From the NCBI GenBank assembly GCA_937888895.1, contig CALASV010000085.1, positions 1 to 33,420 on the forward strand: DNA of 33,420 nucleotides, read 5' to 3'. The position numbers were made by a program, and so were the translations under genes. Below, piece after piece: positions 6,609 to 33,247 of this stretch; the stretch's first letter is position 1; each line of letters starts with the position of its first letter. Below the pieces are notes generated by a model. The model did not search any database. It was not told the DNA's origin and saw nothing but the letters and a program-made list of their open reading frames with translations. Origin of the DNA: an uncultured Clostridia bacterium. Its GTDB lineage: Bacteria > Bacillota > Clostridia > Lachnospirales > Lachnospiraceae.

Positions 6609-6624
6609 TAATTTTGGAGGAAAT

Positions 6625-14037: not shown

Positions 14038-14059
14038 TGGTTGAAAAGAGGAATGGGAT

Positions 14060-15214
14060 GTGACAAGTGGGTTTGTATTTAATGATGAATTTTGGAACAG
14101 AGGTTTTTTCTATGGTTGTGAATATAGAGAAGAACAAGGACTTATTGCAATACCAGAAGAAATGATGTCAGGAACGGCTATTTATATTTCTAGGGCGTTG
14201 GATAGTGGAGAATCAGAAACTGTTTGGAGTAGAATAAAATTTGATATTATTTTACCAAAAGATACAATGGTTGTGTTTTCTTATTTTGCAAGTGATAGCG
14301 ATTTATCAGAGTATAATAATCAAAGTATACTGGTGGATAACTATATTCAAGATGATACTATATTGTTAATAGATAAATTAAATGCTTTAGAGACACTTTG
14401 GATAGAAGAAAGAAAAAATCCAAAAGATATTTTGATTTCTAAGGCAAAGGGTAGATATCTTTGGTTTAAAATCGAATTGCTTTCAAAGAGTGTAGAATTT
14501 CCAAAGGTAAAAGGAATGGAACTTGAATTTCCAAGAGAAAGTTTTGTGGATTATTTGCCTGAGTTTTATAGTTCTCATACAGAAAGTTTTCAATTTTTGG
14601 ATAGATTTTTAGGAATTTATCAAAGTATGATTTTAGATTTGCAAGAAGAAATTGTGAATATTTCTCGTTATTTAGATTCTGATGTAACAACTACAGAATT
14701 TTTACAGTGGTTGGCAGAGTGGGTAGCAGTAGATAATGTATTTCAGTGGGAAGAAAAAAAGTTACGGAATTTTATAAAACAAAGTTTTTCGATTTATAAA
14801 TTAAAAGGAACAAAAGAAGGTTTATCAAAAGTGATAGAGTTATATATTGGTCAAAAGCCAATGATAGTAGAAACTTATAAAATCATGAATACTTATAGTA
14901 AAAGTGAATATCAAGAATATTATCAAAGTTTATATGGGGATAATATTTATTCTTTTTTTGTATTTGTAGAAGAAAAATTTGTACCAACAAATGAAGTATT
15001 AGTTGGGTTAAATGCAATTATAGAACATTATAAACCAGCCTATACGATAGGAAAAGTAATTGTTTTGAAGTCGTTTATGATATTAGGACATCATGTATAT
15101 TTGGGTATCAATAGTTGTACATTAAAAGATTCTATGCTGAAATTAGACGGCAATACCATGGTACCATTTAATACATCCATTTTTAAAGTAGGAGGAACTT
15201 TAGATGAAAAATAA
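14060..15214 (+). CDS. Baseplate/tail protein, P2 gpI-like (phage tail protein I family)
   Basis: The central motif is YLPEFY...FQFLDRFLGIYQSM..DLQEEI..ISRYLDSD.TTTEFLQWLAEWVAVDN....EKKLRNFIKQSFSIYKLKGTKEGLSKVIELY.G. It matches the conserved gpI-like domain found in CIS loci. GTG start, with an AAGAGGAA SD. Confidence 0.75.
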   Translation: MTSGFVFNDEFWNRGFFYGCEYREEQGLIAIPEEMMSGTAIYISRALDSGESETVWSRIKFDIILPKDTMVVFSYFASDSDLSEYNNQSILVDNYIQDDTILLIDKLNALETLWIEERKNPKDILISKAKGRYLWFKIELLSKSVEFPKVKGMELEFPRESFVDYLPEFYSSHTESFQFLDRFLGIYQSMILDLQEEIVNISRYLDSDVTTTEFLQWLAEWVAVDNVFQWEEKKLRNFIKQSFSIYKLKGTKEGLSKVIELYIGQKPMIVETYKIMNTYSKSEYQEYYQSLYGDNIYSFFVFVEEKFVPTNEVLVGLNAIIEHYKPAYTIGKVIVLKSFMILGHHVYLGINSCTLKDSMLKLDGNTMVPFNTSIFKVGGTLDEK

Positions 15215-16982
15215 AAAATACTATCCTTTTGAAAGGAATCATTATTTTTATGGAAAACTCTTAACAGTAAGAGATTTTGAAGATGAACAAAGATATATGA
15301 ATGATAAAAGAAGAATTAACAATGTACTGACAAAAGGAGCAGGAGTTATTAGTGGTCTTTCTACAGTAATGATAGATGAAAAAACAATTTCTTTGGAAAC
15401 TGGTATGGCACTTGATTATATGGGACGAGAAATTATTGTACCAGAATCAGTAACAAAAAAGTTGAATGTTTTAGATGGCTTTAAAGAAATTAAAAATTAT
15501 GAGACAGTTTATCTTTGTTTAGAATATGCAGAAAAAAAGAAAGATAAAGTACATTCGATTACAGAAACAACGAATGCAGAAGAAGTAGATTATAATCGAG
15601 TAGAGGAAAGTTACCATTTATTTTTAACAGATGGGTTCGTAGATAGTAAAAAATTGTCGCTTCATCGTCTTAAAGAAGAAGAACAAGTGATTTATTATGA
15701 TAATGGAATAAAAATAACACAAATTGTACCAAAATATGCAAATCCAAATAAGGAATTAGAAATAAAAGTTAGAATAGAAAAACAAAATGTTCCAAGAATG
15801 ATAGAAGTAGACTATATTTTTTCTTCGGAATATATTAAGGCAGAAGATGGTTCAAATCAAGTGAGAGTATATTATACAGACGAGGATTTGACAGCATATA
15901 AAGAAGTGGAATTAAGTTATATCGTAAAAGTAATTGATGTAAAAGATACAACAGCAAAATTAGTTACAAATGTGGAAGCTTCTAGAATTTTAATTGGTTC
16001 TGTGCCTTATTCTTTTACGGAAAGTGTGGAATATAAAGTCGATATTATAAAAGAATCCATAGTAGATAAAATTCTTTCTGATTATACAAACTTACATTTT
16101 GATGATATTTTGAATATGAACAATGAAGCAAAGATTTATCTTGCGAAGATGCGTTTGATTAAAAAAGAATCAGAATATTATATAGAAGCATTTGAAGCTA
16201 TGCCATTTGGACAATTTCTTCCAAGTAATGCCATGCTTTATATGTTAATGCAGGAAATGAAGAATCCAGTGATAGAAACAAAAAAGACAGACTGGAGCGA
16301 AATTAGAAAAGAATTAGCATTTACAAAGGAAGAAGTTTTGCCAATATCAGCAGAGAAAACATTTGCTTGTGGAGAAGAAACAATAGAAATTGATTTACAT
16401 AGTAAAAATAAATGTTATTTTAGTGATGAAATTGTGCATGGTCTTGGAAAAGGTGATGTTTTAATTCATGTAGCAGTGGAAGATACAATGCAAGAAAATA
16501 ATATTTGTGATGTGAATGCAACGGTATTTGGTGATATTAGTATTTTTAAAAAGAATATGCATTTTATAAAACTTCCGAATTTAAATACAGGAGTATTATC
16601 TTATACAGATAAAGGAACCTTCCGTATTGGTGTGAAATTTTTAGAAGATGCTGGAATGACAAATATTAAAATCAAATGGTGGGCTTATAAAGAAGAAATG
16701 AAAGTGGACAATGATTTTGCTGAATTAAATACTATTTCAGTAAAGATAGAACCAAATACGATAAAAATAGGTCCAAGAGATAAATATAAGTTTGAAGCTA
16801 TAGTAGTAGGAAGTGATAGTCAAGAATGTAGATGGACTGTATTAGACAAAAATGGTGGACAAATTGACTTTAATGGTTTATATGAAGCTCCTACACAAGA
16901 AGGTGTTTATGAAATTATGGCAGAAAGTGTAAAATATCCAAATAAGAAAGCGATTGCTTATGTGGTAGTAAAGCAGAAGTAA
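15204..16982 (+). CDS. Fibre / receptor-binding-like CIS protein with a C-terminal Ig-like (Big_2-like) domain
   Basis: The N-terminus YYPFERNHYFYGKLLTVRDFEDEQRYMNDKRRINNVLTKGAGVISGL...GMALDYMGREIIVPE is a pattern I recall from CIS baseplate-distal proteins. The last ~85 aa (IEPNTIKIGPRDKYKFEAIVVGSDSQECRWTVLDKNGGQIDFNGLYEAPTQEGVYEIMAES) look like a bacterial Ig-like domain. The start overlaps the upstream gene end, with a GGAGG SD. Confidence 0.5.
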   Translation: MKNKKYYPFERNHYFYGKLLTVRDFEDEQRYMNDKRRINNVLTKGAGVISGLSTVMIDEKTISLETGMALDYMGREIIVPESVTKKLNVLDGFKEIKNYETVYLCLEYAEKKKDKVHSITETTNAEEVDYNRVEESYHLFLTDGFVDSKKLSLHRLKEEEQVIYYDNGIKITQIVPKYANPNKELEIKVRIEKQNVPRMIEVDYIFSSEYIKAEDGSNQVRVYYTDEDLTAYKEVELSYIVKVIDVKDTTAKLVTNVEASRILIGSVPYSFTESVEYKVDIIKESIVDKILSDYTNLHFDDILNMNNEAKIYLAKMRLIKKESEYYIEAFEAMPFGQFLPSNAMLYMLMQEMKNPVIETKKTDWSEIRKELAFTKEEVLPISAEKTFACGEETIEIDLHSKNKCYFSDEIVHGLGKGDVLIHVAVEDTMQENNICDVNATVFGDISIFKKNMHFIKLPNLNTGVLSYTDKGTFRIGVKFLEDAGMTNIKIKWWAYKEEMKVDNDFAELNTISVKIEPNTIKIGPRDKYKFEAIVVGSDSQECRWTVLDKNGGQIDFNGLYEAPTQEGVYEIMAESVKYPNKKAIAYVVVKQK

Positions 16983-16991
16983 AGGAACAGG

Positions 16992-17876
16992 GTGTATATG
17001 ATATTTTCAGAAAAGTATTCTATTATACGAGTGTTGGAAAGTACAGAAAGTGCGAATTATTATATTGTGAAACAAAGAATACAACCAGAAAAGTTGTTTA
17101 TAGTGAATGAAATTTTTGATAAACAAAAAATAAAAGAAATTATTTCAGACTTTATGATATTAAAGCAAGAAAATAGACTTTGCGAATTTGTAGAATATTT
17201 TTCTGAAGATTCTAAGTTTTATGTAGTTTTTGAATATTTGCAAGGTTCTAGTTTGAAGGAATATATTGGGAAAAAAGAAGTTTCATTAGAACATAAGACA
17301 GAATTTTTAAAGGGTATCTTATTACAATTTATGAATTATGTGCAGTTACCTCCATTTATTCAATATTCTATGTTGTGTCCAGAAAATATTTTTTTGTATC
17401 AAAGAGAAATAAAATTTCATTATAAATTAAATTTGTCTATGGTGGGTAATAAGGAGATAGATGTTTATTCTGCCCTTACAGTATTGTTACAAGCACTATA
17501 TACAGAAGTAGAGTTACGAAAAAATACAAAACTTTTTATTATATATGAAAAGGCTGAAAAAAGACTTTATCATTCTGTAGGTGAGATTTTAAAAGATATG
17601 GAAGATGTTTTAGAAGCAAATCAAAAAAAGGTAGTAGGAAAAGAACTTTTTTTGGAAAAGAAACAAAAGGTGACACAAATAGGAATGAAAGTATTTGCAG
17701 TTTTGATTGTTGTATTAGCTATTTATACGCTTGGCGAAAGACTAATGAATTTGAATGGGGATGATGATATTATTTATCTTAATATAGATAAGATAGGTAC
17801 AGTGTTCGTAAATCCTGAATTACAAGAAGAAAGTACGACTTCTTCTGAAGTAATTTTTATAGATAATACACAATAA
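16992..17876 (+). CDS. Membrane-anchored Ser/Thr-kinase-like pseudokinase
   Basis: A Hanks-kinase scaffold is recognisable: YSIIRVLE.., hinge FYVVFEYLQGSSLKEYI, catalytic-loop remnant QYSMLCPENIFL, and DVYSALTVLLQALYT. The catalytic residues are replaced. There is no glycine loop. VAIK is FIVNEI (17098-17115). HRDLKPEN is QYSMLCPEN (17361-17387). DFG is NLS (17430-17438). One TM helix (KVFAVLIVVLAIYTLG) is followed by a ~50-aa tail. Confidence 0.5.
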   Translation: MYMIFSEKYSIIRVLESTESANYYIVKQRIQPEKLFIVNEIFDKQKIKEIISDFMILKQENRLCEFVEYFSEDSKFYVVFEYLQGSSLKEYIGKKEVSLEHKTEFLKGILLQFMNYVQLPPFIQYSMLCPENIFLYQREIKFHYKLNLSMVGNKEIDVYSALTVLLQALYTEVELRKNTKLFIIYEKAEKRLYHSVGEILKDMEDVLEANQKKVVGKELFLEKKQKVTQIGMKVFAVLIVVLAIYTLGERLMNLNGDDDIIYLNIDKIGTVFVNPELQEESTTSSEVIFIDNTQ

Positions 17877-17898
17877 TTACAATAGCTGGAGGTATATT

Positions 17899-20601
17899 GT
17901 GAAGAAAAAAGGGTTTATTATAGGCATATTGTTACTTAGTGTTTTGATAACGCTTGGAATTGTATTTCATGTAAGAGTTAGTAATATTGAGGAAACATTA
18001 AATTTTTATGTTACAGAAGATAAAGAATTTTTTTACTTTAATGAAACTTCTTTATATGGATTAAAAGAAAATGGGCAAATTTTTTATGAAGTTGAAAAAG
18101 AAAAAGATACTCAATGGTATGAATTAGCAGTAGATGGAAATTGTAATATTTATGTATTAGAGGAAGAATATTATGGAAATGAAAAAGTAGGTAGTAGTGT
18201 AAGAGTTTATTATGCAAATGGGTCAATAGAGAAACTATATGAAACTAAAATAGGAACATTGTCCAATATAGATTATAAGAATGGTTTTATTACTACTTTT
18301 ATTTTGGATGAAAATAAAAATCAAATAAAGCTTTGGAAGTATGATGTGAAACGAAAGACTTCTACAGAATTTATGTATGAATTGCAAAAACCACAAGAAA
18401 TTATAGAGATAGTGTATACTACGGAAGGTGATATTTATTATTTGACATCAGAAGCACAGTTGTGTGTCATTACTTCTGATAATGAATATTTAGAAATAGC
18501 GTTGGATTATGGAAATGGAGAAATTATTATTCCATGTTTAGATGGTGGATTTTCTACAGATTTAGATGGAAATGTATATTTTACAGATGGTTATAACTTG
18601 GAATTTGTAAGGTATAATCCCAAAAAGAATGTAGTAGAGAAAGTATATGAAAGAGAAGATAGTGTTACAAATCAGTATGCTTTTTATGAACTTCGATATA
18701 TGCGTTATATGGGAAGTATATTGACAGCAGTAAGTCCTTATGTCTTTAGTAGTAGTTCTTTTGATGGGGCTGATTTTTATTTAATTGTAGATTCTTTTTC
18801 CAATAGTACTACGATATCAGAAAAAAGTGAGATGGTTTCTGTCATAATCAGAACAGCAATTCTTTCTTTTTTTATTAGTATAGTAGGGATTTCGATTTTT
18901 ATATTGTTCGGATATAGTATTATATATATTATTAAAAATTTAAGAAGTCTTTTGTTGAAACAAGTATTAATCATTATACCATTGACAATAGTTGTTATAT
19001 TGATTGTTGTTACAAGTTTAAAATCAAAAATATTTGAAGTATTGGAAAAAGATGCTTATTCGCAATTGTATACATTAACAACTTCTATTATTAAAATGAT
19101 TGATACAGAGGAGTTTGAGAAAGTAAATTTTCCAAGAGAACATCAAGAAAGTTATTATAAAGAAGTAGATACTATGATTAATCTAAATATGGAAGAGTTT
19201 CATGAACTTTTTCCAGATATTTTAGAAAAAAATTTATATTATTCTTTGTATGTTGTTCAAAATGGATATTCTTATGTTTGTTATGAAAATGCAGTAAGTT
19301 CTGTAGAAGAAAGACAGCAAATTGGGTTAAGAGAAGAATTATATAATCCTATTACAGAAGATTGGTATTTATTCCAAGACCCAAATAATCATACTTATGT
19401 AGAACATAGTAGTGACGATGAATGGTTTTATTATGCTAGAATCATTACAAATAAGGAAAATAAAATTATTGGATATTTAGAAGTTGGTTTTGATAAGTAT
19501 GTCTTTGAACAAGAAGTAGAAAAAATAGGAAATGAAGTTAGTTTCTTTGTTGTAATTTTACTTGTTATAATGGTATGTTTCATTATGTTTAGTTTACATC
19601 AGTCTTTAAAAAATCTTCGAGTTTTGAAAGCAGGTGTGGCAGAAGTTTCAGATGGACATTGGACAACAACCGTAGATATTCATTCGAATGATGAAATGGA
19701 AGATATAGGTAATGCATTTAATAAAATGTCCTATCGAGTAAGTAAGTATTTAGATTCGATTGTAAAATTAAATATAGCTTATGAAAGATTTGTACCAAAT
19801 AAGATTTTTCATTTATTAGGAAAAGAAACTATTTTAGATGTAAAATTAGGTGATAAAGTTATTAGAAAACTAAGTATTATGTCAGTTTCTATAGAACGAT
19901 TAGAAGAAATGGATAGAACGGAAATGGGAGAAAAGTTTGAACTTATCAATCAAATACTTGGAGATATTGCGAGTATTATTAATGATTATTCTGGTATTAT
20001 TGAAACATTTCAAGGTTCTTCGATTCGTGCTATTTATATAAATTCTGTAGATGAAGCAATTGATACAGCATTACATATTATAGAAAAAGTAAATAATTAT
20101 CAAGCGAAAGAATTGATTAATTTAAGTGTTAATGTGCAGTATGGTGATGCAATTCTTGGTGTAGTGGGAGATGAAGATAGATTAGATACTACGATTGTGT
20201 CAGATGATGTAGATTTTGTCTATACATTGGATAAATTTTCTACTTCTAATCAAACAAAATTGCTTGTAACAAAAGAAGTTTATGAAAAAATTATAGATAA
20301 ACCAAAGTATAATTTTAGATATGTTGGTAAGTTAGAACAAACAAATACAAATCGAATTGTGGATTTATATGACTTAGTTGATGCGTATTCTTTCTATGAT
20401 AAGACAAATAAATTGTTAACAAAAGAACTTTTCGAAAAGGGAGTGGAATTATTTATTTTAGGTAATTTTACAGAAGCTAGAAAACAGTTTATTGATGTAA
20501 TTCGCATTGATTCTAATGATGAAGTGGCAAAGATGTATTTATTTTTATGTGATGAATATAGAAATAAAACAGTAGAACATTGGAAAGGAATCCTCAATTA
20601 A
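17899..20601 (+). CDS. Multi-pass receptor: N-terminal propeller-like ectodomain, TM bundle, second ectodomain, HAMP, degenerate class III nucleotidyl-cyclase homology domain, TPR-like tail
   Basis: An N-terminal TM/signal segment is followed by repeated DGN.Y motifs (DGNCNIYVL, EGDIYYLTS, DGNVYFTDG). Hydrophobic helices lie around nt 18840-19020 and 19545-19595. HAMP is LRVLKAGVAEVSDGHWTTTVDIHSNDEMEDIGNAFNKM (about 19597-19750). The cyclase-like core spans about 19788-20385. Its metal-binding Asp positions read as Ser (SVSIE, about 19882-19896; GSS, 20014-20022). The GDxVNxASR motif reads SDDVDFVYTLD. The tail FEKGVELFILGNFTEARKQFIDVIRIDSNDEVAKMYL is typical of HAMP-cyclases. Confidence 0.6.
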   Translation: MKKKGFIIGILLLSVLITLGIVFHVRVSNIEETLNFYVTEDKEFFYFNETSLYGLKENGQIFYEVEKEKDTQWYELAVDGNCNIYVLEEEYYGNEKVGSSVRVYYANGSIEKLYETKIGTLSNIDYKNGFITTFILDENKNQIKLWKYDVKRKTSTEFMYELQKPQEIIEIVYTTEGDIYYLTSEAQLCVITSDNEYLEIALDYGNGEIIIPCLDGGFSTDLDGNVYFTDGYNLEFVRYNPKKNVVEKVYEREDSVTNQYAFYELRYMRYMGSILTAVSPYVFSSSSFDGADFYLIVDSFSNSTTISEKSEMVSVIIRTAILSFFISIVGISIFILFGYSIIYIIKNLRSLLLKQVLIIIPLTIVVILIVVTSLKSKIFEVLEKDAYSQLYTLTTSIIKMIDTEEFEKVNFPREHQESYYKEVDTMINLNMEEFHELFPDILEKNLYYSLYVVQNGYSYVCYENAVSSVEERQQIGLREELYNPITEDWYLFQDPNNHTYVEHSSDDEWFYYARIITNKENKIIGYLEVGFDKYVFEQEVEKIGNEVSFFVVILLVIMVCFIMFSLHQSLKNLRVLKAGVAEVSDGHWTTTVDIHSNDEMEDIGNAFNKMSYRVSKYLDSIVKLNIAYERFVPNKIFHLLGKETILDVKLGDKVIRKLSIMSVSIERLEEMDRTEMGEKFELINQILGDIASIINDYSGIIETFQGSSIRAIYINSVDEAIDTALHIIEKVNNYQAKELINLSVNVQYGDAILGVVGDEDRLDTTIVSDDVDFVYTLDKFSTSNQTKLLVTKEVYEKIIDKPKYNFRYVGKLEQTNTNRIVDLYDLVDAYSFYDKTNKLLTKELFEKGVELFILGNFTEARKQFIDVIRIDSNDEVAKMYLFLCDEYRNKTVEHWKGILN

Positions 20602-20621
20602 TAATCAGAGAAGGTGTATAT

Positions 20622-22418
20622 ATGGACTTGATAAAGCAGATAAAAAATGCCTTGAGTACTACGCTACAATCTTATGAAACAAGAATAAGAACTTATGTTG
20701 CAAAGTTTACAAATAAGTCAGCAAAGCAAACGAAGTTAAATAAGCAAGTAAGAGAAGTAACTCAGCAAGTAATAAAATATATTGGTGGTAAGCCCGAAAG
20801 TTTAAAAGACTATTTAAAGTTCGGAGAATGGTATATTTCTAAAATACTGTTATTGCGTATTTTAGCTGTTATAGTTGTTCTTGTTCTTTTGGTGATTTAT
20901 GTTGGGATTCCGTTTTTATCAGGGAAATTATGGGCTTCTAAAGTTGTGGTTAACACGCCAGAATATCATACAGCAAGTGGAAAAGTGGAAGTATTTCGTA
21001 GTGATAATGTTCTTTTATATAAAGGAACTATGGAAGATGGTAGAATTACGGGTATAGGAGAAGTATATAGTGGTAATTTGTTAGTATATGCTGGTGATTT
21101 TGTGAATGCAAAGTATCATGGAGAAGGAAAGCTTTATCAAAAAGATGGTTTATTGTATGAAGGTGACTTTGTAGATAATTTATATCATGGTATGGGAGTA
21201 CTATATTATCCAAATGGAACAATCCAATTTGAAGGGACATTTGAAAAAGGATTGTATCATGGAGAAGGTACTCTCTACAATGAGAATGGTACTTTAAAGT
21301 ATATGGGAAAATGGACAGAGGGTACTTATGATGTGAATGGAAAAATTCACAATGAAAATGGTGTACTTCAATATGAAGGAGATTTGACATTAGGAAAGCC
21401 AAATGGAATAGGAACACAATATGATGAAATAGGAAAGATAAAGTATACAGGTTCATTTGTAGAAGGAATTTATGAAGGCAAAGGTATTCTTTACAGAGAA
21501 GATGGTAGTATAGAGTATGAAGGAAATTTTGCTGAAGGTAAATTTGATGGAAATGGTAAATTGTATTATGAAAATGGAACTTTACAATATGAAGGAAATT
21601 TTGTAGATAATACATTTGATGGTACGGGTAAATTGTATCAAGAAGATGGTACAATTTTGTATGAAGGAACATTTTCTAATAATAATTATGAAGGAGCTGG
21701 AAAATTATACGGAGAAAATGGTGCTTTACGATATGAAGGAACTTTTGTAGATAATGTATTTGAAGGAAATGGAGCATTATATACAGAAGAAGGAAAACTA
21801 CTTTATACTGGAGAATTTGAGGATAATACTTTTTCTGGAAATGGAACATTGTATTCGGAGGAAACAGGTAGAGAACTATATACAGGAGAATTTTCAGAAG
21901 GTGTATTTAGTGGAACAGGAACTTTATATAATGAAAAAGGACAAGATATTTATACAGGAAGTTATTATGCAGGAGAAATAGATTTTCCAAAATTTTGCGA
22001 TGTAGAACAACGTAAAGTGAAAGAAGTATTTGGAGAAGAAGATGAACTTATTTTACTTGATTATACGTTTTTATTAAGCTATGAAGATTTTGAAGTATTG
22101 TTTGAATTTGATTATGTATATGAAGAAACTGCTCCTGTTGTAAGTAAGATAAAGATGTTTGGTACTTCTGAAATAGATGGAGTAGCAAATGGAAAGTCTA
22201 TGGTAGAAGTAAAAGAAAAGTTTTCAGAAGGAAGTTTTTCAGAGTATACATTTGTTGCAGGGGAAGAAGATGTCATATTTTTTAATTATGCAGGTGAGAA
22301 TGTAAAAGTAGGAAAGAGTATCTATAGTATGAAATATATTTTGGAAAATTATTATATTCGAGCGTATGCACTAGAAGAACAAGGAGAAATTATTTATTAT
22401 GAAATAGGAGGTTTTTAA
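20622..22418 (+). CDS. Single-pass membrane protein with about 13 tandem MORN repeats
   Basis: ATG 20622, with GAGAAGGTG upstream, is preferred over TTG 20580, which lies inside the preceding gene. A K-rich N-terminus is followed by the TM helix ILLLRILAVIVVLVLLVIYVGIPFL. Then come 23-24-aa repeats of the form Y.G.F.(D/E)(N/G).(Y/F).G.G.LY.E.G. (for example LLYEGDFVDNLYHGMGVLYYPNGT). The ~150-aa C-terminal domain is unassigned. Confidence 0.8.
   Translation: MDLIKQIKNALSTTLQSYETRIRTYVAKFTNKSAKQTKLNKQVREVTQQVIKYIGGKPESLKDYLKFGEWYISKILLLRILAVIVVLVLLVIYVGIPFLSGKLWASKVVVNTPEYHTASGKVEVFRSDNVLLYKGTMEDGRITGIGEVYSGNLLVYAGDFVNAKYHGEGKLYQKDGLLYEGDFVDNLYHGMGVLYYPNGTIQFEGTFEKGLYHGEGTLYNENGTLKYMGKWTEGTYDVNGKIHNENGVLQYEGDLTLGKPNGIGTQYDEIGKIKYTGSFVEGIYEGKGILYREDGSIEYEGNFAEGKFDGNGKLYYENGTLQYEGNFVDNTFDGTGKLYQEDGTILYEGTFSNNNYEGAGKLYGENGALRYEGTFVDNVFEGNGALYTEEGKLLYTGEFEDNTFSGNGTLYSEETGRELYTGEFSEGVFSGTGTLYNEKGQDIYTGSYYAGEIDFPKFCDVEQRKVKEVFGEEDELILLDYTFLLSYEDFEVLFEFDYVYEETAPVVSKIKMFGTSEIDGVANGKSMVEVKEKFSEGSFSEYTFVAGEEDVIFFNYAGENVKVGKSIYSMKYILENYYIRAYALEEQGEIIYYEIGGF
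21010..21980 (+). repeat. Tandem coding repeat array (MORN units, about 69-72 nt period)
   Basis: There are about 13-14 in-frame degenerate copies. They also generate the spurious antisense ORF 21046-21672 and the alternate-frame ORF 21754-21981. Confidence 0.8.
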
Positions 22419-22420
22419 GA

Positions 22421-24460
22421 ATGTGGAGAAAAATAGTAGCTTTTTTATTATTTGTTTGTATTCTGTTTTCAGAAACCTCCTTTATTGCCTATGCAAAACA
22501 AAGGAATTTCACAGTAGATAATGTGATTGATATGGCAATCGAACATAGCGAAGGGGCACAAAGTGCTACGATAGAAAAAATAAAAAAGGAAATCGAATTA
22601 CAACAGGCAAAAGATGCAATTAAAGATATTAGAAAAAATGAAAGCACAATTCGATTTTCTTTATTATTTAATATTAAATTTCCAGAGAAGCATGGTATGC
22701 CAAAAGAAATTGAATTAGTGACAAAAGTTCCACAAATTCAGACAGAAATCGCTATTTTAAAAGAACAAGTAGAGTATGAAAGGTTAAATTCCTCCTTACA
22801 GGCACAACTTGCTTTTTATGATGTATTACAATTGGAATATGAAGTACAGTTTTATGAAGAACGATTGGAAGATAGCAAAAAGCTATTAGAAGCAACAGAA
22901 GCAAAATTTAAAACAGGAAATGGAAAAAAGGAAGATGTTGACTACATAAAAGGTCTTGTCAAAGAGTATGAGAGTGGTTTAAATAGTGCGATTACTTCAT
23001 TAGACCGAAAAAAAGAGAAGCTCGGTGATTTGATAGGAGTAGATGTTAGAGTTGGTTATACATTTACTGAATATTTGCCAGAAGCAACAATTACTCGTTC
23101 TCAGTTGACCGATATTATTTCGTATGCCAAAAAAAATGATTTTAATCTTTATAAAGCAACACAAGACCGTAAGTATGCAGAAAAAGAAGTAGAAGAAGTA
23201 CTTAGTGTATATCGTAGTAAATATTCTAAATATATTGGTGATATAGAAGCGTATATTAAGGCAAATGAAGGCAAGACAATGGATTATGATGTATTTATTC
23301 AAAAATATAATCATGCATTAACACAGATGGATAGTCCTTGGTATGGTGTTTATGTCATTAATTTATTATTCTTTAAAATAAAAATTCCAAAGGAATGGTT
23401 TAAAGGGACATATTCTGGTACTAGGTACATGGAAGATGAAAAATATGCGTTATTTATTTCTTTAGTAGATAGAGATAAGGCAAGAACAGAAGAAAAAAAT
23501 GTAGAAAAAGCTTTAGTAAGTAGTATTAAAGACTCTTATGAAACATTAAAACAAATGGAAAATGCATTTGAAACAGCCAAAGAAAGTTTAAAAAGTGCAG
23601 AAGAATCGTATGCAACTGCTTTAAAAGAAAATAAATTAGGATTAACTACATTTTCTACATTAGAATCGATGCGTGCTGGTATGTATGAAACGCAAAAAAG
23701 TTTATATGAAATGCAAATCGAATACGCAAAGGCATTAGCAAACTTTGATTTTATGACAAGTGGTTATGTGAGCGATTTACTTGTAGGTGGAGAAAGTGTT
23801 GAAGGAGATTATGAAGCAGGGTCTACATTTGCAGATGAATTTGGAGAGGAAGCAACAGATACCGTAGCACCAACTTGGTATATAAAGACAAGTGCTAGTG
23901 ATTATAAGTTTACGTTTGGAATTTCCGTACCTTCAGATTATGATGTGAATTACTATGAACTTTACTACAATAATATGTTAATTGGTAGTAAGACAAAAAC
24001 TTCGAAAACATTAGTGCATTTGGCATTGACTTATGAAGATTCTTCTCAGCTTTGTTTAAAATTGTATAAGGATACTAAGTTAAAGTATATTGCTTACTTT
24101 GATGGTGGAGATTATGGTGGTGAATTACAATTGCAAAAAGCAGAAAGTGCAAAATCACCATTAGAGGAGGAAAATATTCCAGTAGGACAATGGAGTTTTG
24201 TAAAAGCAGATACATTACGAAGCGAGTTTAGTTTTGCTGTAAATGGAGAGTATGAATATGATACCTATACGATTTGGTATAAGGACACAGTACTTGCAGA
24301 AGTAGAGAAAGATAAAACATGGAAAACTCTAAACTTATATTTTGCTGATGTGGAAAATATAACAATTAAGATTAGTAAGAACGGGAAGGAAGTAAGAAGT
24401 TTTCGATTGGAGCAGACAGAAGAAGGAATGGGCAATGTACTTTCTGGTTCAAAGGAGTGA
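22421..24460 (+). CDS. Secreted TolC-like (outer membrane efflux protein family-like) protein with two C-terminal beta-sandwich-like repeats
   Basis: The signal peptide is MWRKIVAFLLFVCILFSETSFIAYA. The N-terminal FTVDNVIDMAIEHSEGAQSATIEKIKKEIELQQAKDAI, then GKKEDVDYIKGLVKEYESGLNSAITSLDRKKEKLGDLIG, then LTTFSTLESMRAGMYETQKSLYEMQIEYAKALANFDFMTSGY follow the duplicated TolC/OEP helical pattern. Two related ~90-aa modules follow at about 23872-24150 and 24180-24420. Confidence 0.5.
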   Translation: MWRKIVAFLLFVCILFSETSFIAYAKQRNFTVDNVIDMAIEHSEGAQSATIEKIKKEIELQQAKDAIKDIRKNESTIRFSLLFNIKFPEKHGMPKEIELVTKVPQIQTEIAILKEQVEYERLNSSLQAQLAFYDVLQLEYEVQFYEERLEDSKKLLEATEAKFKTGNGKKEDVDYIKGLVKEYESGLNSAITSLDRKKEKLGDLIGVDVRVGYTFTEYLPEATITRSQLTDIISYAKKNDFNLYKATQDRKYAEKEVEEVLSVYRSKYSKYIGDIEAYIKANEGKTMDYDVFIQKYNHALTQMDSPWYGVYVINLLFFKIKIPKEWFKGTYSGTRYMEDEKYALFISLVDRDKARTEEKNVEKALVSSIKDSYETLKQMENAFETAKESLKSAEESYATALKENKLGLTTFSTLESMRAGMYETQKSLYEMQIEYAKALANFDFMTSGYVSDLLVGGESVEGDYEAGSTFADEFGEEATDTVAPTWYIKTSASDYKFTFGISVPSDYDVNYYELYYNNMLIGSKTKTSKTLVHLALTYEDSSQLCLKLYKDTKLKYIAYFDGGDYGGELQLQKAESAKSPLEEENIPVGQWSFVKADTLRSEFSFAVNGEYEYDTYTIWYKDTVLAEVEKDKTWKTLNLYFADVENITIKISKNGKEVRSFRLEQTEEGMGNVLSGSKE

Positions 24461-24468
24461 AAAGAGGT

Positions 24469-27400
24469 ATGAGAAAAAGATTTCTAGCTTACATAGGAGT
24501 GACATTATTTAGTTGTATGTTATTAGGAAATAGCGTGGTGTTTGGAAATACAAGACCGACTGCTAATGAGTTTCCAGAGAAAACGATTATTATAGGTACG
24601 TATGCGATTGCGTTGGATGTTGTGAATGAAGAATTGTTAGAGGTGGCTTTGCAGAGTGCTGAGACAAATATGCAGAATGAAGTGTATTTTAAGTCGGATG
24701 TGAATCGTGGCGTTTGGTATAATATTACAAATAGTGATAGTATTAGTGATATTTCGGAGAGTACAACAAATATTGTAAAGAATCAAGATATTGATAAATT
24801 GTATTTAACACATTATACGAATGCTTCTGGTGTGACGGTATGTTTTGAGACGGATTCTAGTGTGTATGTTTCGGATATCAATACACCACAAGTGCCTGCT
24901 AATATCGTGGAATTAGATGAATTAGAGAATGAACTGAAAATTCAACAAGCATTGTATGATAGTGTAAAAGATGAACCAGAAGATGAAACGGATAAAGAAG
25001 AAGACAAACGTTTAGAGAAAAAGGAAATTTATAGTCAAAAAATAAATAGTTTGAAAGAGGTTTTAAAAGAAATAAAAAATAAGGAAGTGGATAAGTTAAC
25101 TTCCCAAATTCGTGCAGTAGAGAATTTAGAACGTCAGCTTGTACAAAAAGGAGCAGATAGTGAGAAAATAGAAATGATAGTTTCGCAAAAAGAGAATCTA
25201 AAAAATACAAGAATGGCGTATTGTTATCAAATTTTAATTGATAAGATGAATAAAGAAAATGTTTCTATTGACTATGAAGATTGTAATGATTTAATTCAAA
25301 AGTATGCTGCTGCCATTACAAGTTTAGAGTCTATTTTGAGTGAATTAGGTATTGCAACGGATAAAGTAGCATCTAATACAGAAGATGACAAAGACGCAGA
25401 TGGAACTTTTTCTGATAATCAACCAAGTAAAGAATTAGTGGAAGAAGAAGCAACAGGAATAGATAAAGTTATTGAAGAAAATTTGGCATTGATGTTGGAA
25501 GCAGCAGAAAGTGGAGATTTTGGAAGAGCAGAGGAAGCTTTAGAGGAGGCTTATGTTGCTGAAACAGTAAAAAATAATGATAATAATGTTTCTGACGAAG
25601 TAAAAGAAAAGCAAAAAGAAGTATTAGAACAAGCGATTGAACTTTTAGGACAAGAGGCATTGGAATTAGTACAAGCTGGAGATGGAGAAAGTTATAAAGA
25701 GGCAGTAAAAAATAAAGAATCCAATGCTGTATTAGAAGCAATCAAAGAAGAAACAGTTAATGAATTGAATGATTTATTAACACAATTAGAAGATAATTAT
25801 GCTTCTTTGAGAGAAAAAACAGATGAGGCAGTAGAACAAGCAAAGCTATTACAACAGGAAATGGAAAGTTATAAGGAATTATTGGATGCTGTTCCAAGTT
25901 GTGAAGTTTCTGAACAATTCAAAAAATTATTACAGGATAAAGTGGGTTATGCCGAAGGGCAATTGAATGAGGTAAAACTGCAATCTATTCCAGAATATCA
26001 AGAAACAGCTAGTTTGATTGAGAGTGCCACAGTGGAAGTAGAATTATTAAATGAAAAATATTTAGAGGCAATCGAAGAAAATAATACAGAAGATAGTAAA
26101 CAATATAAATCAGAATTAGATGCAGCATTAGAAAAACTTGTAAATGCAGAAAATAAGATAGAGCAATTAGAAAAGGATTTTATGGAAGGAAATTTAAAAT
26201 CGGATTTGGAAACAGACGAAATACCTTCTACTGAAGGATTAAGTGAAAAGAAAGAAGATATTTTAAAGGATTTAGAAGATGTTCTTTCAGGAGAAGATAA
26301 GGTAACAGAGGTTTCAAGTTTGTTGGAAGATTTAAAGAAATTGCAGAAAGAACATTTGAATCATTCTGAAACTTTAGAAGAAGTGATAGATATTCTAGAA
26401 GAATCTTTATCCGACTTAGAAAGATTATTACAAATGATGATAGCAGAAGAGAGTGGCAAAGAATTATTACAAGAGGAATTACAGCAAACGAAAGAAAATG
26501 TAGAATGTTTAGAAGATTATTTTGCTTTTGTGATAGAAACTAATCAAGGAATAGAGCAAGAGTTAGAAAAAACAAAAAATAAATTGAAACAAACTACTAT
26601 TTTATCAAATGGAAAAAATACCTATCAAGAAAAACTGGATGGAGTAGAAAAAACTTTAGTAAAAGAAATACAAGATTGTATTAAAACAGCATTACAAAAA
26701 GAGATAGATACATTAGAAAAACAAATAGAAGTATTACAAAAAGGAGAAGAAACAAGTTCGTTTACAGAAGAAGAACAAGCTATTTTGAATGGCTATCTTG
26801 CTTTTATTCAAGAAAATAATCAAAAGATAGAAAAACAATTAGAAAAAACAATAGATGATTTAAAAAAGATAGAAATTTTAGAAGAAGGCAAAGATAGTTA
26901 TAAAGAAAAAATAGCAGAAACAGATAGCATATCAACAAAAGAATTACAAGATAGTATTACAAAATTATTACAAACAGAGATTGATAAATTAGTAAAGCAG
27001 ATAGAAACATTACAAACAAAAGAAAAACAAGAAGATATTTTGGAACAATTAGAACAAGTGATATCAAAAGAAGATGACAGTTTAGAAAAAGTTGCTGATT
27101 TATTACAGAGTTTAGAGGAAGTAGAAGCAATCAATTTGGCACAGACGGAACGTTTGCAAGAGGCAATGACTATAATGGGGGACGCTTTATCTGATTTAGA
27201 GGAATTGTTACAAAATGCAGACGAACAAAAAGAAGGAACAAATTTAGTGAAGGAAAAGATAACACAAATAGAGGAACAAACAGAACTTTTAGAAGAGTAT
27301 CTTGCCTTTATTGAGAAAACAAATGAAAATTTAGAGAAACAGTTAGCTAACACAAGTGATATATTTGAACAAAAGGATAGGTTAGCAGATACGAAAGATA

Positions 27401-28062
27401 TTTATAAAGAAAAGTTAGATGATGTAAGTAGTGAAGATGTTACAAATAATTTTTTAGAACAACAATTAAATGATGTTATTACAGAAGCATTACAAGAGGA
27501 AATATCTGCTATTACAAAGCAAGAACAAGAAGTACAAGAAAAAATAGAGGAGCACTTAGCAGAAATTTTAGGAGACAAGAGTGAATTAAGTGAAGCGAAT
27601 AAAGCTCTTGCAAATGCCCAAGAAGAAAAATATTCAGAAGAAGAATTAGATGCGATTGCTACATTAACGGATAATTTGAGAGAAAAATATGAAGAAAAAG
27701 GAGCAGAACTCATTTATCCATGGTTGATTATCTTTGAAGATTATGATATAAAATTAACACTTCCAGCAATTAAGATAAAAGAAGAAATTTATGTACCAGC
27801 AGAGGAGTTAGCAGTACAATTAGGTGCAGACTTATTAAAAAGCAAGACAAATCATGTTATTGTAATAAAAGGTAAAGGTGTTTTAATTGAGTATATTTTA
27901 AATGATAATGTAGTATATGTGAATGATAAAAAAATGACAGTGACACTTCCACCAGCGAAAGAAATTCAAAATCAAGTATATATCTCTTTACAATGTTTCG
28001 TAAGAGCGTATCGTTTAGAAGAAGCAACGTATGATGACTATACTATATTATCAAAGAAATGA
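24469..28062 (+). CDS. Signal-anchored giant E/K-rich coiled-coil protein with a C-terminal copper-amine-oxidase-N-terminal-like (stalk) domain
   Basis: ATG 24469 (MRKRFLAYIGVTLFSCMLLGNSVVFG), with AAGGAG 11 nt upstream, is preferred over the GTG at 24457. About 900 aa have heptad-like E/K/L/Q composition with long internal repeats. The last ~115 aa (27712-28059: IKIKEEIYVPAEELAVQLGADLL....VIVIKGKGVLIEYILNDNVVYVNDKKMTV.LPPAKEIQNQVYISLQCFVRAYRLE) match the Cu_amine_oxidN1 pattern. Confidence 0.6.
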   Translation: MRKRFLAYIGVTLFSCMLLGNSVVFGNTRPTANEFPEKTIIIGTYAIALDVVNEELLEVALQSAETNMQNEVYFKSDVNRGVWYNITNSDSISDISESTTNIVKNQDIDKLYLTHYTNASGVTVCFETDSSVYVSDINTPQVPANIVELDELENELKIQQALYDSVKDEPEDETDKEEDKRLEKKEIYSQKINSLKEVLKEIKNKEVDKLTSQIRAVENLERQLVQKGADSEKIEMIVSQKENLKNTRMAYCYQILIDKMNKENVSIDYEDCNDLIQKYAAAITSLESILSELGIATDKVASNTEDDKDADGTFSDNQPSKELVEEEATGIDKVIEENLALMLEAAESGDFGRAEEALEEAYVAETVKNNDNNVSDEVKEKQKEVLEQAIELLGQEALELVQAGDGESYKEAVKNKESNAVLEAIKEETVNELNDLLTQLEDNYASLREKTDEAVEQAKLLQQEMESYKELLDAVPSCEVSEQFKKLLQDKVGYAEGQLNEVKLQSIPEYQETASLIESATVEVELLNEKYLEAIEENNTEDSKQYKSELDAALEKLVNAENKIEQLEKDFMEGNLKSDLETDEIPSTEGLSEKKEDILKDLEDVLSGEDKVTEVSSLLEDLKKLQKEHLNHSETLEEVIDILEESLSDLERLLQMMIAEESGKELLQEELQQTKENVECLEDYFAFVIETNQGIEQELEKTKNKLKQTTILSNGKNTYQEKLDGVEKTLVKEIQDCIKTALQKEIDTLEKQIEVLQKGEETSSFTEEEQAILNGYLAFIQENNQKIEKQLEKTIDDLKKIEILEEGKDSYKEKIAETDSISTKELQDSITKLLQTEIDKLVKQIETLQTKEKQEDILEQLEQVISKEDDSLEKVADLLQSLEEVEAINLAQTERLQEAMTIMGDALSDLEELLQNADEQKEGTNLVKEKITQIEEQTELLEEYLAFIEKTNENLEKQLANTSDIFEQKDRLADTKDIYKEKLDDVSSEDVTNNFLEQQLNDVITEALQEEISAITKQEQEVQEKIEEHLAEILGDKSELSEANKALANAQEEKYSEEELDAIATLTDNLREKYEEKGAELIYPWLIIFEDYDIKLTLPAIKIKEEIYVPAEELAVQLGADLLKSKTNHVIVIKGKGVLIEYILNDNVVYVNDKKMTVTLPPAKEIQNQVYISLQCFVRAYRLEEATYDDYTILSKK
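26254..27560 (+). repeat. Nested long coding repeats inside the coiled-coil gene
   Basis: Unit B reads EDIL..LE.V.S.ED......LL..L......L...E.L.E.....L.E.LSDLE.LLQ, at about 26254-26433 and 27031-27213. Unit A reads LE(D/E)Y.AFI...N...E..L..T........GK..Y.EK........LQ..I...LQ.EI....KQ.E.LQ, at about 26506-26740, 26785-27015 and 27289-27540. Confidence 0.7.
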
Positions 28063-28153
28063 GAGAGTGTAATGCTAATGAGGTTATTGGAAAATAGGTA
28101 TACATCTTGTTTTCCGATAGCCTTGTATTCTAAGAAAGGACAAGGGTGACGGT

Positions 28154-28726
28154 ATGGGAAGTTATACGGTTATGGCAGATGTTAGTCGTTCTATATTGGA
28201 ATTATTAAAAAGTAATTTAGTACCAGAACCGATTAAAAAAGCAGAAAATATTGGGGTTTGTGCACCAAATGATAGAGGAAATAACATTTTAGGACTTTAT
28301 TTATATAATATTGATGAGAATCCAGAATCTCGCTCAATGGAGAGAATTGTGTTAGATAAAGAGCATTACAAAGATGCTCCGATGTCCATCAATTTATATT
28401 ATATGTTATTTGCTTATTCTGATACGGATTTAATTACGAGAGCAGTAGATGAACAAAGAATTTTAGGAAAAGCGATTCAAGTATTAAATGAAAATAGTCA
28501 GCTTGAAAAAGAATATTTGATGGGTACTTTAAAAGAAAACGAAGAAACAGTATCACTAAGTATGATTAATATGACCTTAGAAGAAAAAGTAAGAATTTGG
28601 TCATTGTTTAATCAACCATATCGAATTTCTGCGTTTTATAAAGTTGGACCTATTTTCTTAGAATCTGATAAAATTAAAACAGTTAAGAGAGTACAGAAAG
28701 TGGATATTTCTGTGTATCAGAAATGA
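28154..28726 (+). CDS. CIS tail terminator/cap protein, DUF4255 (Pvc16/Afp16 N-terminal domain) family
   Basis: 190 aa. The pattern is VSRSILELLKSNLVP....ENIGVCAPND......ILGLYLYNIDENPESR....APMSINLYYMLFAY....EQRILGKAIQVLNENSQL......LSMINMTLEEKVRIWSLFNQPYRISAFYKVGPIFLES. This follows the DUF4255 consensus. Confidence 0.8.
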   Translation: MGSYTVMADVSRSILELLKSNLVPEPIKKAENIGVCAPNDRGNNILGLYLYNIDENPESRSMERIVLDKEHYKDAPMSINLYYMLFAYSDTDLITRAVDEQRILGKAIQVLNENSQLEKEYLMGTLKENEETVSLSMINMTLEEKVRIWSLFNQPYRISAFYKVGPIFLESDKIKTVKRVQKVDISVYQK

Positions 28727-28745
28727 TTAGTAAGAGGATAGTAGT

Positions 28746-31869: not shown

Positions 31870-31891
31870 ATAGAAATTGAGGTGTAATAAA

Positions 31892-32593: not shown

Positions 32594-32607
32594 GAAAAAA
32601 TTGTTTG

Positions 32608-32649
32608 TTAGTCTATGGATAAAATGATGATATATATTTGATAGACTAA
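32608..32649 (+). promoter_or_regulatory. Inverted repeat in the intergenic region upstream of the PAAR-like gene (weak terminator or operator)
   Basis: TTAGTCTAT (32608-32616) pairs with ATAGACTAA (32641-32649) around a 24-nt AT-rich loop, followed by TATAAATTTTTA. The stem is short and the loop is large. Confidence 0.25.
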
Positions 32650-32684
32650 TATAAATTTTTATAGAAAAGGAAAGGAAAGTTTAT

Positions 32685-33071: not shown

Positions 33072-33088
33072 AGGAAAGGTGTTTATCT

Positions 33089-33247
33089 ATGAAACAATTA
33101 CATAACAAGAATATTACAAATTTTTACAAAAAATTAGAGGATGTTTGGCCAAGAGATGATAAATGGCATATGCATACGCATGATGTGATTTTTGGTTTTG
33201 TTTATGAAAAAGTAATGAACACCATCAATTTCACCAACTCTTGGTGA
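33089..33247 (+). pseudogene. 52-codon ORF, probably the 5-prime fragment of a truncated gene
   Basis: It has a good SD (AAGGAAAGGTG). It reads MKQLHNKNITNFYKKLEDVWPRDDKWHMHTHDVIFGF.., then runs into sequence that codes on the opposite strand and stops at 33245-33247. Confidence 0.3.

Follow-up and report, generated by a model that had tools for sequence, protein, structure and literature searches.

How a contractile injection system (CIS) can work in a bacterium with a thick wall and a single membrane is the question raised by contig CALASV010000085.1, a stretch of 33,420 nucleotides (nt) from an uncultured Lachnospiraceae bacterium that we analysed at its full length (the window). To our knowledge, the only bacterial monoderm CIS studied so far is that of Streptomyces, which depends on a single membrane protein and kills the cell that produces it. 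The window carries a CIS operon in which five genes, referred to here as g1 to g5, lie between a fibre-like gene, fib592, and the cap gene. These five genes are probably an envelope-associated module of a Bacillota CIS lineage and, with moderate confidence, we propose that they act as a sensor plus scaffold, docking an intracellular CIS at the membrane, spanning the wall and gating the firing. What is new is that a whole Bacillota lineage conserves a five-protein envelope module made from repurposed parts: by prediction, a pseudokinase, a receptor with a pseudocyclase, a MORN-repeat protein, a TolC-fold protein in cells that have no outer membrane, and a rod that would bind the wall. The cassette and its two neighbours are the following:

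15204-16982, + strand: fib592, a Cis13-family fibre-like or baseplate-periphery protein of 592 amino acids (aa), identified with NCBIfam and without a Pfam match
16992-17876, + strand: g1, open reading frame for a bitopic pseudokinase of 294 aa
17899-20601, + strand: g2, open reading frame for a receptor-like protein of 900 aa with four transmembrane (TM) segments
20622-22418 (longest open reading frame from 20580), + strand: g3, bitopic MORN-repeat protein
22421-24460, + strand: g4, secreted TolC-fold protein of 679 aa
24457-28062, + strand: g5, secreted helical protein of 1201 aa
28154-28726, + strand: cap, Cis16/Afp16-type (Pvc16_N, 118 bits)

As an earlier note on this DNA had described, the five genes run on one strand between the fibre-like gene and the cap gene. 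The note's figure of 2-22 nt for the junctions holds for g1 to g4: the gap is 9 nt from fib592 to g1, 22 nt from g1 to g2 and 2 nt from g3 to g4, and it is 20 nt from g2 to g3 if g3 starts, as is likely, at ATG 20622, which has a ribosome-binding site. The longest open reading frame of g3 starts instead at TTG 20580 and overlaps g2 by 22 nt. The g4/g5 junction is -4 or +8 nt depending on whether g5 starts at GTG 24457, overlapping g4 by 4 nt, or at ATG 24469, the start called in L001, a 96.5% identical contig from a metagenome assembly. The cap gene, which the note had called DUF4255-like, does follow g5 after 91 nt, and a terminator scan found no terminator-like site on the + strand from 14000 to 33231.

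The ratio dN/dS, calculated against the related locus L004 (75-90% protein identity), was 0.16 for g1, 0.21 for g2, 0.20 for g3, 0.08 for g4 and 0.18 for g5, and the CIS structural genes fell in the same range (0.06-0.24; fib592, 0.11). Because purifying selection acts on all five (0.08-0.21), g1 to g5 can be regarded as real genes. By hydropathy, from which the topology was drawn, every product has a signal peptide or TM helices, as had been proposed: g1 to g3 have TM segments, and g4 and g5 have N-terminal signal sequences. Thus, three of the products combine TM segments with cytoplasmic domains (the pseudokinase of g1, the HAMP-pseudocyclase-helical tail of g2 and the basic N-terminus of g3), and two are secreted and elongated (the TolC fold of g4 and the helical rod of g5, with its Cu_amine_oxidN1 end). 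NCBIfam has no family for any of the five, and no hydrolase domain was detected in them with Pfam or NCBIfam.

The five cassette proteins

g1 consists of a cytoplasmic kinase-fold domain (residues 1-225), one TM segment (230-248) and a short outside tail. Its Pkinase match, at 26.9 bits, is under the Pfam cut-off of 31.7, and kinases of the Protein Data Bank (PDB), namely MNK1 and CDPK, match it at E 7e-5. The catalytic motifs have been replaced, with the VAIK lysine changed to Asn, HRD to YSM and DFG to NLS, and the catalytic Lys/Asp are retained in none of the 18 family members, which does not agree with a Hanks-type Ser/Thr kinase. By its motifs, g1 is a pseudokinase with a kinase fold and no catalytic residues; the fold and the TM anchor that had been assigned to it stand, with the amendment that the catalytic residues are gone family-wide. 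In L006, L015 and L009, the TM segment of the g1 homolog is followed by an extracellular LysM domain, which ties the cassette to peptidoglycan; this domain has been lost from the g1 of the window.

g2 has the architecture of a receptor. Its TM segments lie at 5-23, 320-338, 356-374 and 547-565, a four-TM layout found in most of 37 homologs, and they delimit two ectodomains, an NHL-type beta-propeller (25-319) and a second ectodomain (376-546). The cytoplasmic parts are HAMP (567-611), a class III cyclase fold (about 641-825) and a helical tail (832-899). The HAMP match (PF00672; 30 bits versus a cut-off of 25) stands directly after the fourth TM segment. The cyclase fold is weak in Pfam (16 bits versus 21.9) and matches the photoactivated cyclase bPAC at E 8e-9. 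Compared with bPAC, D156 is changed to V, D201 to S, the substrate Lys to T, Asn to D and Arg to Y, and the catalytic residues are degenerate in all 37 homologs, so that g2 does not qualify as a class III cyclase. The AF2 model (pLDDT 66) has an all-beta first ectodomain, a helix-plus-sheet second ectodomain and a C-terminal helical repeat, and Foldseek matches the propeller to the six-blade NHL type, including the extracellular sensor of Mycobacterium tuberculosis PknD and the Bacteroides hybrid two-component sensor BT4663. Of the propeller-HAMP-cyclase-TPR receptor described earlier, the propeller (by AF2 and Foldseek), HAMP and the cyclase fold are retained, although the cyclase is dead, and the TPR part is reduced to a predicted helical repeat at 832-899 without a family match.

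The likeness of g2 to known sensors is partial. Its first ectodomain matches the propellers of PknD and BT4663 by fold, and its TM-ectodomain-TM-HAMP segment matches WalK and MtrB weakly (about 35 bits). Unlike receptors that join NHL or PAS-like domains to HAMP, g2 has four TM segments and two ectodomains, and its output is a dead cyclase fold plus a helical repeat instead of a kinase, cyclase or MCP domain. Across homologs, identity to the window protein is 26-33% in HAMP, pseudocyclase and tail, compared with 17% in the propeller and 19% in the second ectodomain, a pattern that would fit a conserved binding partner inside and a variable signal outside. The g2 family amounts to 537 clusters (at 50% identity) with E<=1e-30 in an exhaustive HMMER search; a word-indexed protein search returned only 10 relatives, and a profile search mostly added MFS-fused paralogs and generic HAMP/cyclase proteins. 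An assembly collection contained no exact copy of g2 or g4. In this paralogous family, the g2-like N-terminal half is fused to an MFS transporter (L039:1335-4352; P0131-P0135), and such a paralog lies just upstream of the cassette in Fusibacter and apparently in Acidaminobacter too.

Enzymatic kinase or cyclase signalling by g1 and g2 is ruled out, as the catalytic residues are absent across both families. Because both signalling folds are dead, the roles of g1 and g2 would be structural or allosteric.

g3 was confirmed as a TM protein with about 13 MORN repeats. It has 12 regular repeats and one degenerate one, with a period of 23-24 residues (MORN, PF02493, 113.8 bits; MORN_2, 40.9 bits), and hydropathy gives one TM segment at 89-107 in the numbering of the long open reading frame. 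A basic cytoplasmic N-terminus of about 75 aa precedes this segment, and the repeats, placed outside, are followed by a C-terminal domain of about 140 aa.

g4 was expected to be a secreted TolC-like helical protein, and the three lines of evidence agree. After a cleavable-looking Sec signal peptide, it has a two-repeat long-helix TolC-like domain (26-460) and two Ig/FN3-like domains (485-675). The OEP match reaches 47.3 bits; the family profile matches TolC in register over both repeats at E 2e-5; and Foldseek, searched with an AF2 model of pLDDT 80 whose helices are 72 residues long, returns TolC as the top match, together with OprM and CusC, at probability 1.0 and TMt 0.55-0.6. The model thus supports the duplicated helical-hairpin alpha-barrel fold that g4 shares with TolC and the outer membrane factors. 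At least 148 full-length homologs were found. The differences from that family are also clear. The carrier taxa (Lachnospiraceae, Oscillospiraceae, Fusibacter and Paenibacillus) are monoderm and have no outer membrane. Where TolC has long membrane strands, the g4 model has 6-residue strands (310-323) and an unmodelled 17-residue segment (75-91); g4 therefore appears in the model to be devoid of the 12-strand membrane beta-barrel of TolC, and the monomer model is compatible with a short barrel too. In addition, g4 carries the two extra Ig/FN3-like domains, and it is linked or fused to the wall-associated g5 within a CIS operon, not placed beside efflux or type I secretion genes. g4 is a case in which one can ask what use a cell that has no outer membrane makes of a TolC fold.

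g5 has a conserved N-terminal globular domain (31-160) and, at its C-terminus (1098-1185), Cu_amine_oxidN1 (PF07833; 32.7 bits versus a cut-off of 24.2), which scores 26-110 bits in homologs and is kept in those of Oscillospiraceae, Fusibacter and Heliorestis. Conservation is highest in the N-terminal domain (41% identity), followed by the C-terminal Cu_amine_oxidN1 end (25%), and the helical middle varies in length. Its composition suggests a coiled coil. Residues 631-1045 (26347-27591) are a strain-specific repeat expansion, about 400 helical residues that are absent from homologs of 700-930 aa, and the length of the rod therefore varies between strains. The earlier note had described g5 as a signal-anchored coiled coil with a Cu-amine-oxidase-N-like end. 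This end is confirmed, but the anchor was rejected: g5 and its homologs have cleavable-looking Sec signal peptides with AxA-type sites, and these are followed by a conserved mature N-terminus with the motif RPxAxxFPxKTIIIGT.

In Paenibacillaceae, g4 and g5 are fused in a single polypeptide of 1100-1335 aa (L050:9839-13846, L051 and L052). One Lachnospiraceae metagenome-assembled genome (MAG) also has a fusion (L008:9998-14674), and the fused proteins overall measure 1100-1560 aa. These natural fusions, a Rosetta-stone link, indicate that g4 and g5 act together.

Distribution and gene order in Bacillota

If the cassette had been found only in this genome, or mostly away from CIS genes, there would be little reason to connect it with the CIS. 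Instead, its genes occur together, and in conserved order, inside the CIS loci of dozens of Bacillota species. In L001 and L004, the order is fib-g1-g2-g3-g4-g5-cap, followed by a 231-aa gene and DUF4280. For a wider survey, one genome per species was scanned with the g4 alignment, and the six-frame open reading frames of the resulting 46 loci were searched with the window proteins and then with family HMMs. In all 46, g4 lies inside a CIS cluster, and none is without CIS genes. The carriers are Lachnospiraceae, Epulonipiscium, Oscillospiraceae, Ruminiclostridium, Clostridium sp. ASF356, Heliorestis, Fusibacter, Acidaminobacter, Soleaferrea, Coprocola, Paenibacillus and Marinicrinis; they include gut Lachnospiraceae and Oscillospiraceae, which are common gut taxa, and a cultured mouse-gut strain. 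In Clostridium sp. ASF356 (NZ_CP097810.1), the part of the locus that was retrieved reads J2-P2_I-fib-g1-g2-g3-g4-g5-cap-DUF4280-ATPase, and further cultured carriers are Fusibacter sp. JL216-2, Heliorestis acidaminivorans DSM 24790 and Paenibacillus contaminans.

In every locus outside Paenibacillaceae with enough flanking sequence, g3 is directly upstream of g4, and g5, cap and DUF4280 are downstream. g3 adjoins g4 in every g4-anchored locus with upstream flank, although not directly upstream in Paenibacillaceae, and cap directly follows g5 in nearly all related loci. With the family HMMs, g2 was detected in about 33 of the 46 loci and g1 in about 27; in some, the strand is the opposite one. 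Oscillospiraceae-type loci have the order spike-g3-g4-g5-cap. Helicovermis profundi has a 25%-identical g2 together with g3, DUF4280, g4-like and g5-like genes and an Afp15-type ATPase. Two of the contigs, L029 and L027, are labelled Escherichia coli and Desulfovibrionaceae and contain Oscillospiraceae- or Clostridia-type copies of the locus; they are probably mis-binned MAG contigs.

A metagenome scan was seeded with DUF4280, since the cap alignment is too variable for this purpose. It added one further g4-g5-cap locus and six higher-GC loci with g2, g3 and DUF4280, accompanied by fib and a g1-like gene where the contig extends and by cap in five of the six. These six are without typical g4 and g5, although L078 has a shorter g4-like open reading frame and L055 a g5-like one in that place. 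Because DUF4280 is so conserved, most of its matches belong to other CIS or type VI secretion system (T6SS) lineages, and about 20 spike-DUF4280 loci of such lineages lack the cassette, with only isolated weak single matches to MORN or HAMP models; they serve as natural negative controls.

Taken across these loci, synteny indicates that the cassette is a lineage-wide module, whose widest core is fib-g2-g3-cap; g4 and g5 occur for the most part in Bacillota loci of lower GC, and g1, although frequent, is patchy. The cassette had been described as embedded in the CIS operon. It is not an insert there, and a recent insertion was rejected, because the same gene order is seen at protein identities between 98% and about 25% and in different families, including Paenibacillaceae and Helicovermis, as expected of an ancestral module.

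The same data bear on the possibility that the cassette proteins are cargo, effectors or unrelated neighbours, for instance that the MORN protein is a eukaryote-like toxin. This idea has a precedent, as MORN (PF02493) is enriched in extracellular CIS (eCIS) loci and classed with the eukaryote-like domains of putative eCIS toxins, while OEP and HAMP are not enriched in that set (Geller et al. 2021, PMC8213781). However, TM segments or Sec signal peptides in all five products imply the Sec route and not loading into a cytoplasmic tube; their fixed position, order and architecture over deep divergence, with low dN/dS, are unlike what is seen in variable CIS effector genes; and the CIS linkage of 46 out of 46 g4-anchored loci excludes a chance neighbourhood. 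We consider this explanation most improbable and, given the Sec/TM targeting, fixed synteny and constraint, effectively excluded. MORN proteins earlier listed as eukaryote-like eCIS toxins now look more like components of the envelope. EAT8/EAT12 of the 2021 set were considered as homologs of the cassette and rejected, as Ccel_1518 has only 180 nt (about 59 codons) and is unrelated.

Docking, firing and release

The sheath gives a first indication of the kind of CIS that the cassette serves. The closest solved sheath is 9EZM, from the T6SS of Halogeometricum borinquense (E 1e-106), and the second is 8BKY/8BL4, from the cytoplasmic CIS of Streptomyces, CIS-Sc (E 9e-91 for 8BKY); the PVC, tCIS, AFP and AlgoCIS sheaths follow at E 1e-44 to 1e-50, with eCIS sheaths at about 1e-45 to 1e-50. 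Both of the closest systems act from inside the producer, with a membrane protein encoded at the CIS cluster (PMC12237407, PMC11566945). The gene for CisA (Sco4242), which CIS-Sc requires, lies just downstream of those for the baseplate; the protein is bitopic, with its N-terminus inside and an extracytoplasmic sensor-like C-terminal domain, and has been proposed to bring the CIS to the membrane and to serve as sensor and checkpoint for firing (PMC12237407). In the archaeon, the gene for Hbor_38620, a protein with six TM segments, lies upstream of the core CIS cluster and correlates with the T6SS mode, and the particle stands perpendicular to the membrane with Cis11, Cis12 and Cis13 at the contact; moreover, Bacillota Cis11 proteins are reported to be the closest relatives of archaeal Cis11 (PMC11566945).

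Under our sensor-plus-scaffold proposal, the CIS would assemble in the cytoplasm, and its baseplate periphery (the Cis13-like fib592, Cis11 or Cis12) would dock onto the cytoplasmic domains of g1, g2 and g3. g2 would be the receptor, whose propeller and second ectodomain may sense something in the wall zone or outside. A HAMP-mediated conformational change in its dead cyclase/helical domain could then license docking or firing, as a non-enzymatic checkpoint akin to the one proposed for CisA. The MORN rod of g3, g4 (probably a TolC-like trimer) and g5 would form an extracytoplasmic scaffold fixing the site in the peptidoglycan, with g5 bound to g4 and, via its C-terminal domain, to the wall, and with the LysM of g1 homologs adding wall hold. 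The scaffold may also mark or open the way across the thick wall if firing is outward, as in a T6SS.

The idea of a sensor plus scaffold had already been raised in the earlier note, and the anatomy fits it, namely the pseudoenzymes, the receptor architecture, LysM and the g4-g5 fusion; what has to be given up is enzymatic signalling through the kinase and cyclase folds. Several points weigh against this proposal. Contact between the cassette and the CIS is something that we infer, the topology of the cassette is drawn from hydropathy, and the g2 model is of modest confidence (pLDDT 66). In Oscillospiraceae-type loci, g1 and g2 were not seen within 10 kb, and the sensor half is either not universal or located elsewhere. 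The locus still has a Tail_P2_I adaptor as well as a fibre-like protein of the Cis13 type, and both are hallmarks of eCIS in Bacillota and Actinobacteriota according to a 2026 catalogue (PMC12923769). Finally, regarding g4 itself, the lumen of a TolC-type trimer is too narrow for a CIS (Hcp-type) tube. g4 would thus not be a simple conduit unless it is assembled differently, and by analogy with TolC it is more likely a strut or collar.

The adaptor and the Cis13 protein lead to a second explanation, that the operon encodes a true eCIS. In this scenario, g2 and g1 would be an envelope sensor that times expression or release, and g3 to g5 would be a scaffold for wall remodelling and exit without a holin-endolysin pair. 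A particle of about 100 nm would have to leave a thick-walled cell. Tail_P2_I and a Cis13-family fibre-like protein are present in the locus, and baseplates of this kind in Bacillota have been assigned to eCIS with fibres (PMC12923769). Related loci have an Afp15-type ATPase (WHD+AAA), the gene for which lies outside the window in this strain, and neither the window nor the ASF356 locus showed any lysis genes, so that another exit route would be needed. Yet neither phosphorylation nor cyclic-nucleotide signalling can come from a pseudokinase and a pseudocyclase, there is no encoded DNA-binding output, g1 to g5 contain no detected hydrolase domain, and the closest characterised sheath relatives are both intracellular.

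fib592 also argues against an eCIS. NCBIfam CIS13_fam matches its residues 9-144 at 84 bits, a partial match, and neither fib592 nor cap has a sequence relative in the PDB. It directly precedes the cassette and co-varies with it: in loci with g1-g2 directly after it, fib592 keeps 41-55% identity over its full length, above the neighbouring baseplate proteins, with 53% in the N-terminal domain and 45% in the C-terminal Ig-like domain. By contrast, the receptor-binding fibres of eCIS diversify rapidly (PMC12923769). From this conservation, unusual for a receptor-binding fibre, fib592 is read as a conserved Cis13-family protein and not a fast-evolving receptor binder. Of the features of the eCIS mode, the Cis13-family fibre-like gene and the Tail_P2_I adaptor are present; the fibre-like protein is, however, unusually conserved, and the locus also conserves five envelope proteins. 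Overall, we regard the eCIS explanation as unlikely.

The likeness to CIS-Sc suggests a third explanation, a suicide checkpoint of the CisA type, in which a cytoplasmic CIS fires into the membrane of its own cell and produces a regulated death during envelope stress, differentiation or sporulation; g2 would be the stress sensor, g1 and g3 would be membrane adaptors, and g4 and g5 would have no role beyond stabilising the complex in the wall. The sheath has a near relative in that of CIS-Sc, the Streptomyces producer is likewise monoderm, the baseplate uses the same Tail_P2_I-type adaptor lineage, and in both cases a membrane protein is encoded just downstream of the baseplate genes. The CisA model needs a bitopic protein with its N-terminus inside and an extracytoplasmic sensor-like domain; compared by description, g1 and g3 share this topology and gene position, and g2 has sensor-like ectodomains. 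Many carriers also belong to groups with endospore formers, such as Paenibacillus, Heliorestis, Epulonipiscium and many Clostridia. The differences are considerable, however. Streptomyces has one such membrane protein and the window five; CisA has an unstructured N-terminus and a solute-binding-like C-terminal domain (PMC12237407), and has no kinase fold, HAMP, cyclase fold, MORN repeats, TolC fold or coiled coil; and CIS-Sc has no conventional fibre gene, whereas the lineage of the window has a conserved Cis13-family protein. An elaborate and conserved outside apparatus (the TolC fold of g4, the g5 rod and the MORN rod) seems needless for puncturing the own membrane, and the conserved DUF4280 PAAR-like tip and the fibre-like Cis13 suggest a target beyond the cell. 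We thus consider a suicide checkpoint quite unlikely. Because of the large conserved extracytoplasmic apparatus and the PAAR-like tip, we lean towards outward, T6SS-like firing rather than CisA-like firing into the own membrane.

Outward firing is the mode of the T6SS, and the two T6SS that can be compared with this sensor-plus-scaffold module resemble it in different ways. The haloarchaeal T6SS has the closest sheath, its baseplate binds the cytoplasmic membrane of a single-membrane organism, Cis12 and Cis13 at the baseplate periphery are thought to help anchoring, and the T6SS mode is correlated with a conserved membrane protein whose gene lies at the CIS cluster, before the core genes. It differs in having a single 6-TM candidate anchor, with a cytoplasmic domain of about 150 residues, and in that the archaea have an S-layer, no peptidoglycan and nothing like g3, g4 or g5. 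The canonical T6SS uses the trans-envelope complex TssJLM and the threonine phosphorylation pathway TagQRST-PpkA-Fha. It is alike in encoding, within its operon, a multi-protein envelope complex with cytoplasmic docking sites and wall-spanning parts, and in having a membrane-spanning kinase-fold protein and external sensing linked to firing. In contrast, g1 has no catalytic residues and no phosphorylation cascade can follow from it, and the hosts of the window lineage are monoderm. Moreover, none of the window proteins matched the TssJ, TssL, TssM, TssK, TssA or ClpV families in Pfam, so that the operon does not qualify as a canonical T6SS. A complete type-VI-like apparatus for contact-dependent injection in monoderms would have the CIS docked on g1 to g3 with its baseplate first, the NHL-propeller receptor g2 as the trigger by a pseudoenzyme relay of conformational changes only, and outward firing through a peptidoglycan port made of g4 as a TolC-derived barrel, the MORN rod of g3 and g5 as a wall-anchored coiled coil; we consider it doubtful in this specific form.

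Membrane adaptors for CIS are an already known idea, as shown by TssJLM, CisA, Hbor_38620 and the baseplate extension of tCIS. The composition of the cassette, however, is entirely new and far more elaborate than the single-protein adaptors known for one-membrane organisms. Lineage II loci have been noted to contain unnamed 'subtype-specific genes' without recognisable domains (Chen et al. 2019). Full-text searches of a literature library returned no description of the module, nor of a TolC-like, MORN, pseudokinase or HAMP component in any CIS, and this result, together with the absence of NCBIfam families for g1 to g5, is in agreement with the claim that the system is undescribed. The module provides concrete genes with which T6SS-like and checkpoint-controlled CIS can be tested against each other in monoderms.

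The CIS operon and its other genes

The window is AT-rich (GC about 29%) and consists almost wholly of one gene array on the + strand. Pfam matches of the window proteins identify the operon as a CIS of the Afp/PVC-like superfamily, lineage II, with sheath, tube, gp25-like, Baseplate_J, spike, cap and PAAR-like tip genes clustered together. Outside the cassette and its two neighbours, the features are:

111-1613, + strand: sheath (Phage_sheath_1, 77.6 bits)
1645-2082 and 2909-3625, + strand: two T4-gp19-type tube proteins (T4_gp19, 146.6 bits)
5958-6608, + strand: CIS_tube protein (Pfam, 86.6 bits)
6592-7731, + strand: gpD-like hub (Phage_GPD, 37.8 bits)
7728-8480, + strand: spike (Phage_base_V, 85.1 bits)
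8495-8869, + strand: gp25 (GPW_gp25, 71.2 bits)
8923-11889 and 11905-14037, + strand: two Baseplate_J proteins (Afp11; Pfam, matched twice)
14060-15214, + strand: Tail_P2_I protein (Pfam, 43.9 bits)
28746-30764 and 30742-31869, + strand: Eco57I-type methyltransferase, then a 375-aa open reading frame
31877-32593, + strand: 238-aa protein with weak CarboxypepD_reg-like matches
32685-33071, + strand: DUF4280 (PAAR-like) protein (Pfam, 117.6 bits)

The Pvc16_N match of the cap is 118.2 bits. The two Afp11 copies and the split spike agree with subtypes IIa/IIc of dbeCIS, for which two Afp11 copies and a split gp27/gp5 spike have been described (Chen et al. 2019). A 574-aa open reading frame without a family match (4216-5940), located between the tube paralogs and the CIS_tube gene, may by its position be a tape-measure equivalent; according to dbeCIS, a tape measure is generally absent from lineage II.

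GC skew is strongly positive (0.15-0.53) in each 1-kb window and AT skew is positive throughout. Long open reading frames with family matches are all on the + strand, and those of the - strand are nested inside + strand genes. The gene of the 238-aa protein is conserved in many related loci, where it separates the cap from the DUF4280 tip gene, and its product may be an accessory of the tip or spike. Between the cap gene and the 238-aa gene, the window has a 3.2-kb insertion (28728-31902) that contains the methyltransferase and the overlapping 375-aa open reading frame, which has no family match and is probably the cognate endonuclease. The insertion is missing from L001 and from L004; compared with these two loci, the restriction-modification pair inside the CIS operon is a strain-specific insertion, present only in the strain of the window.

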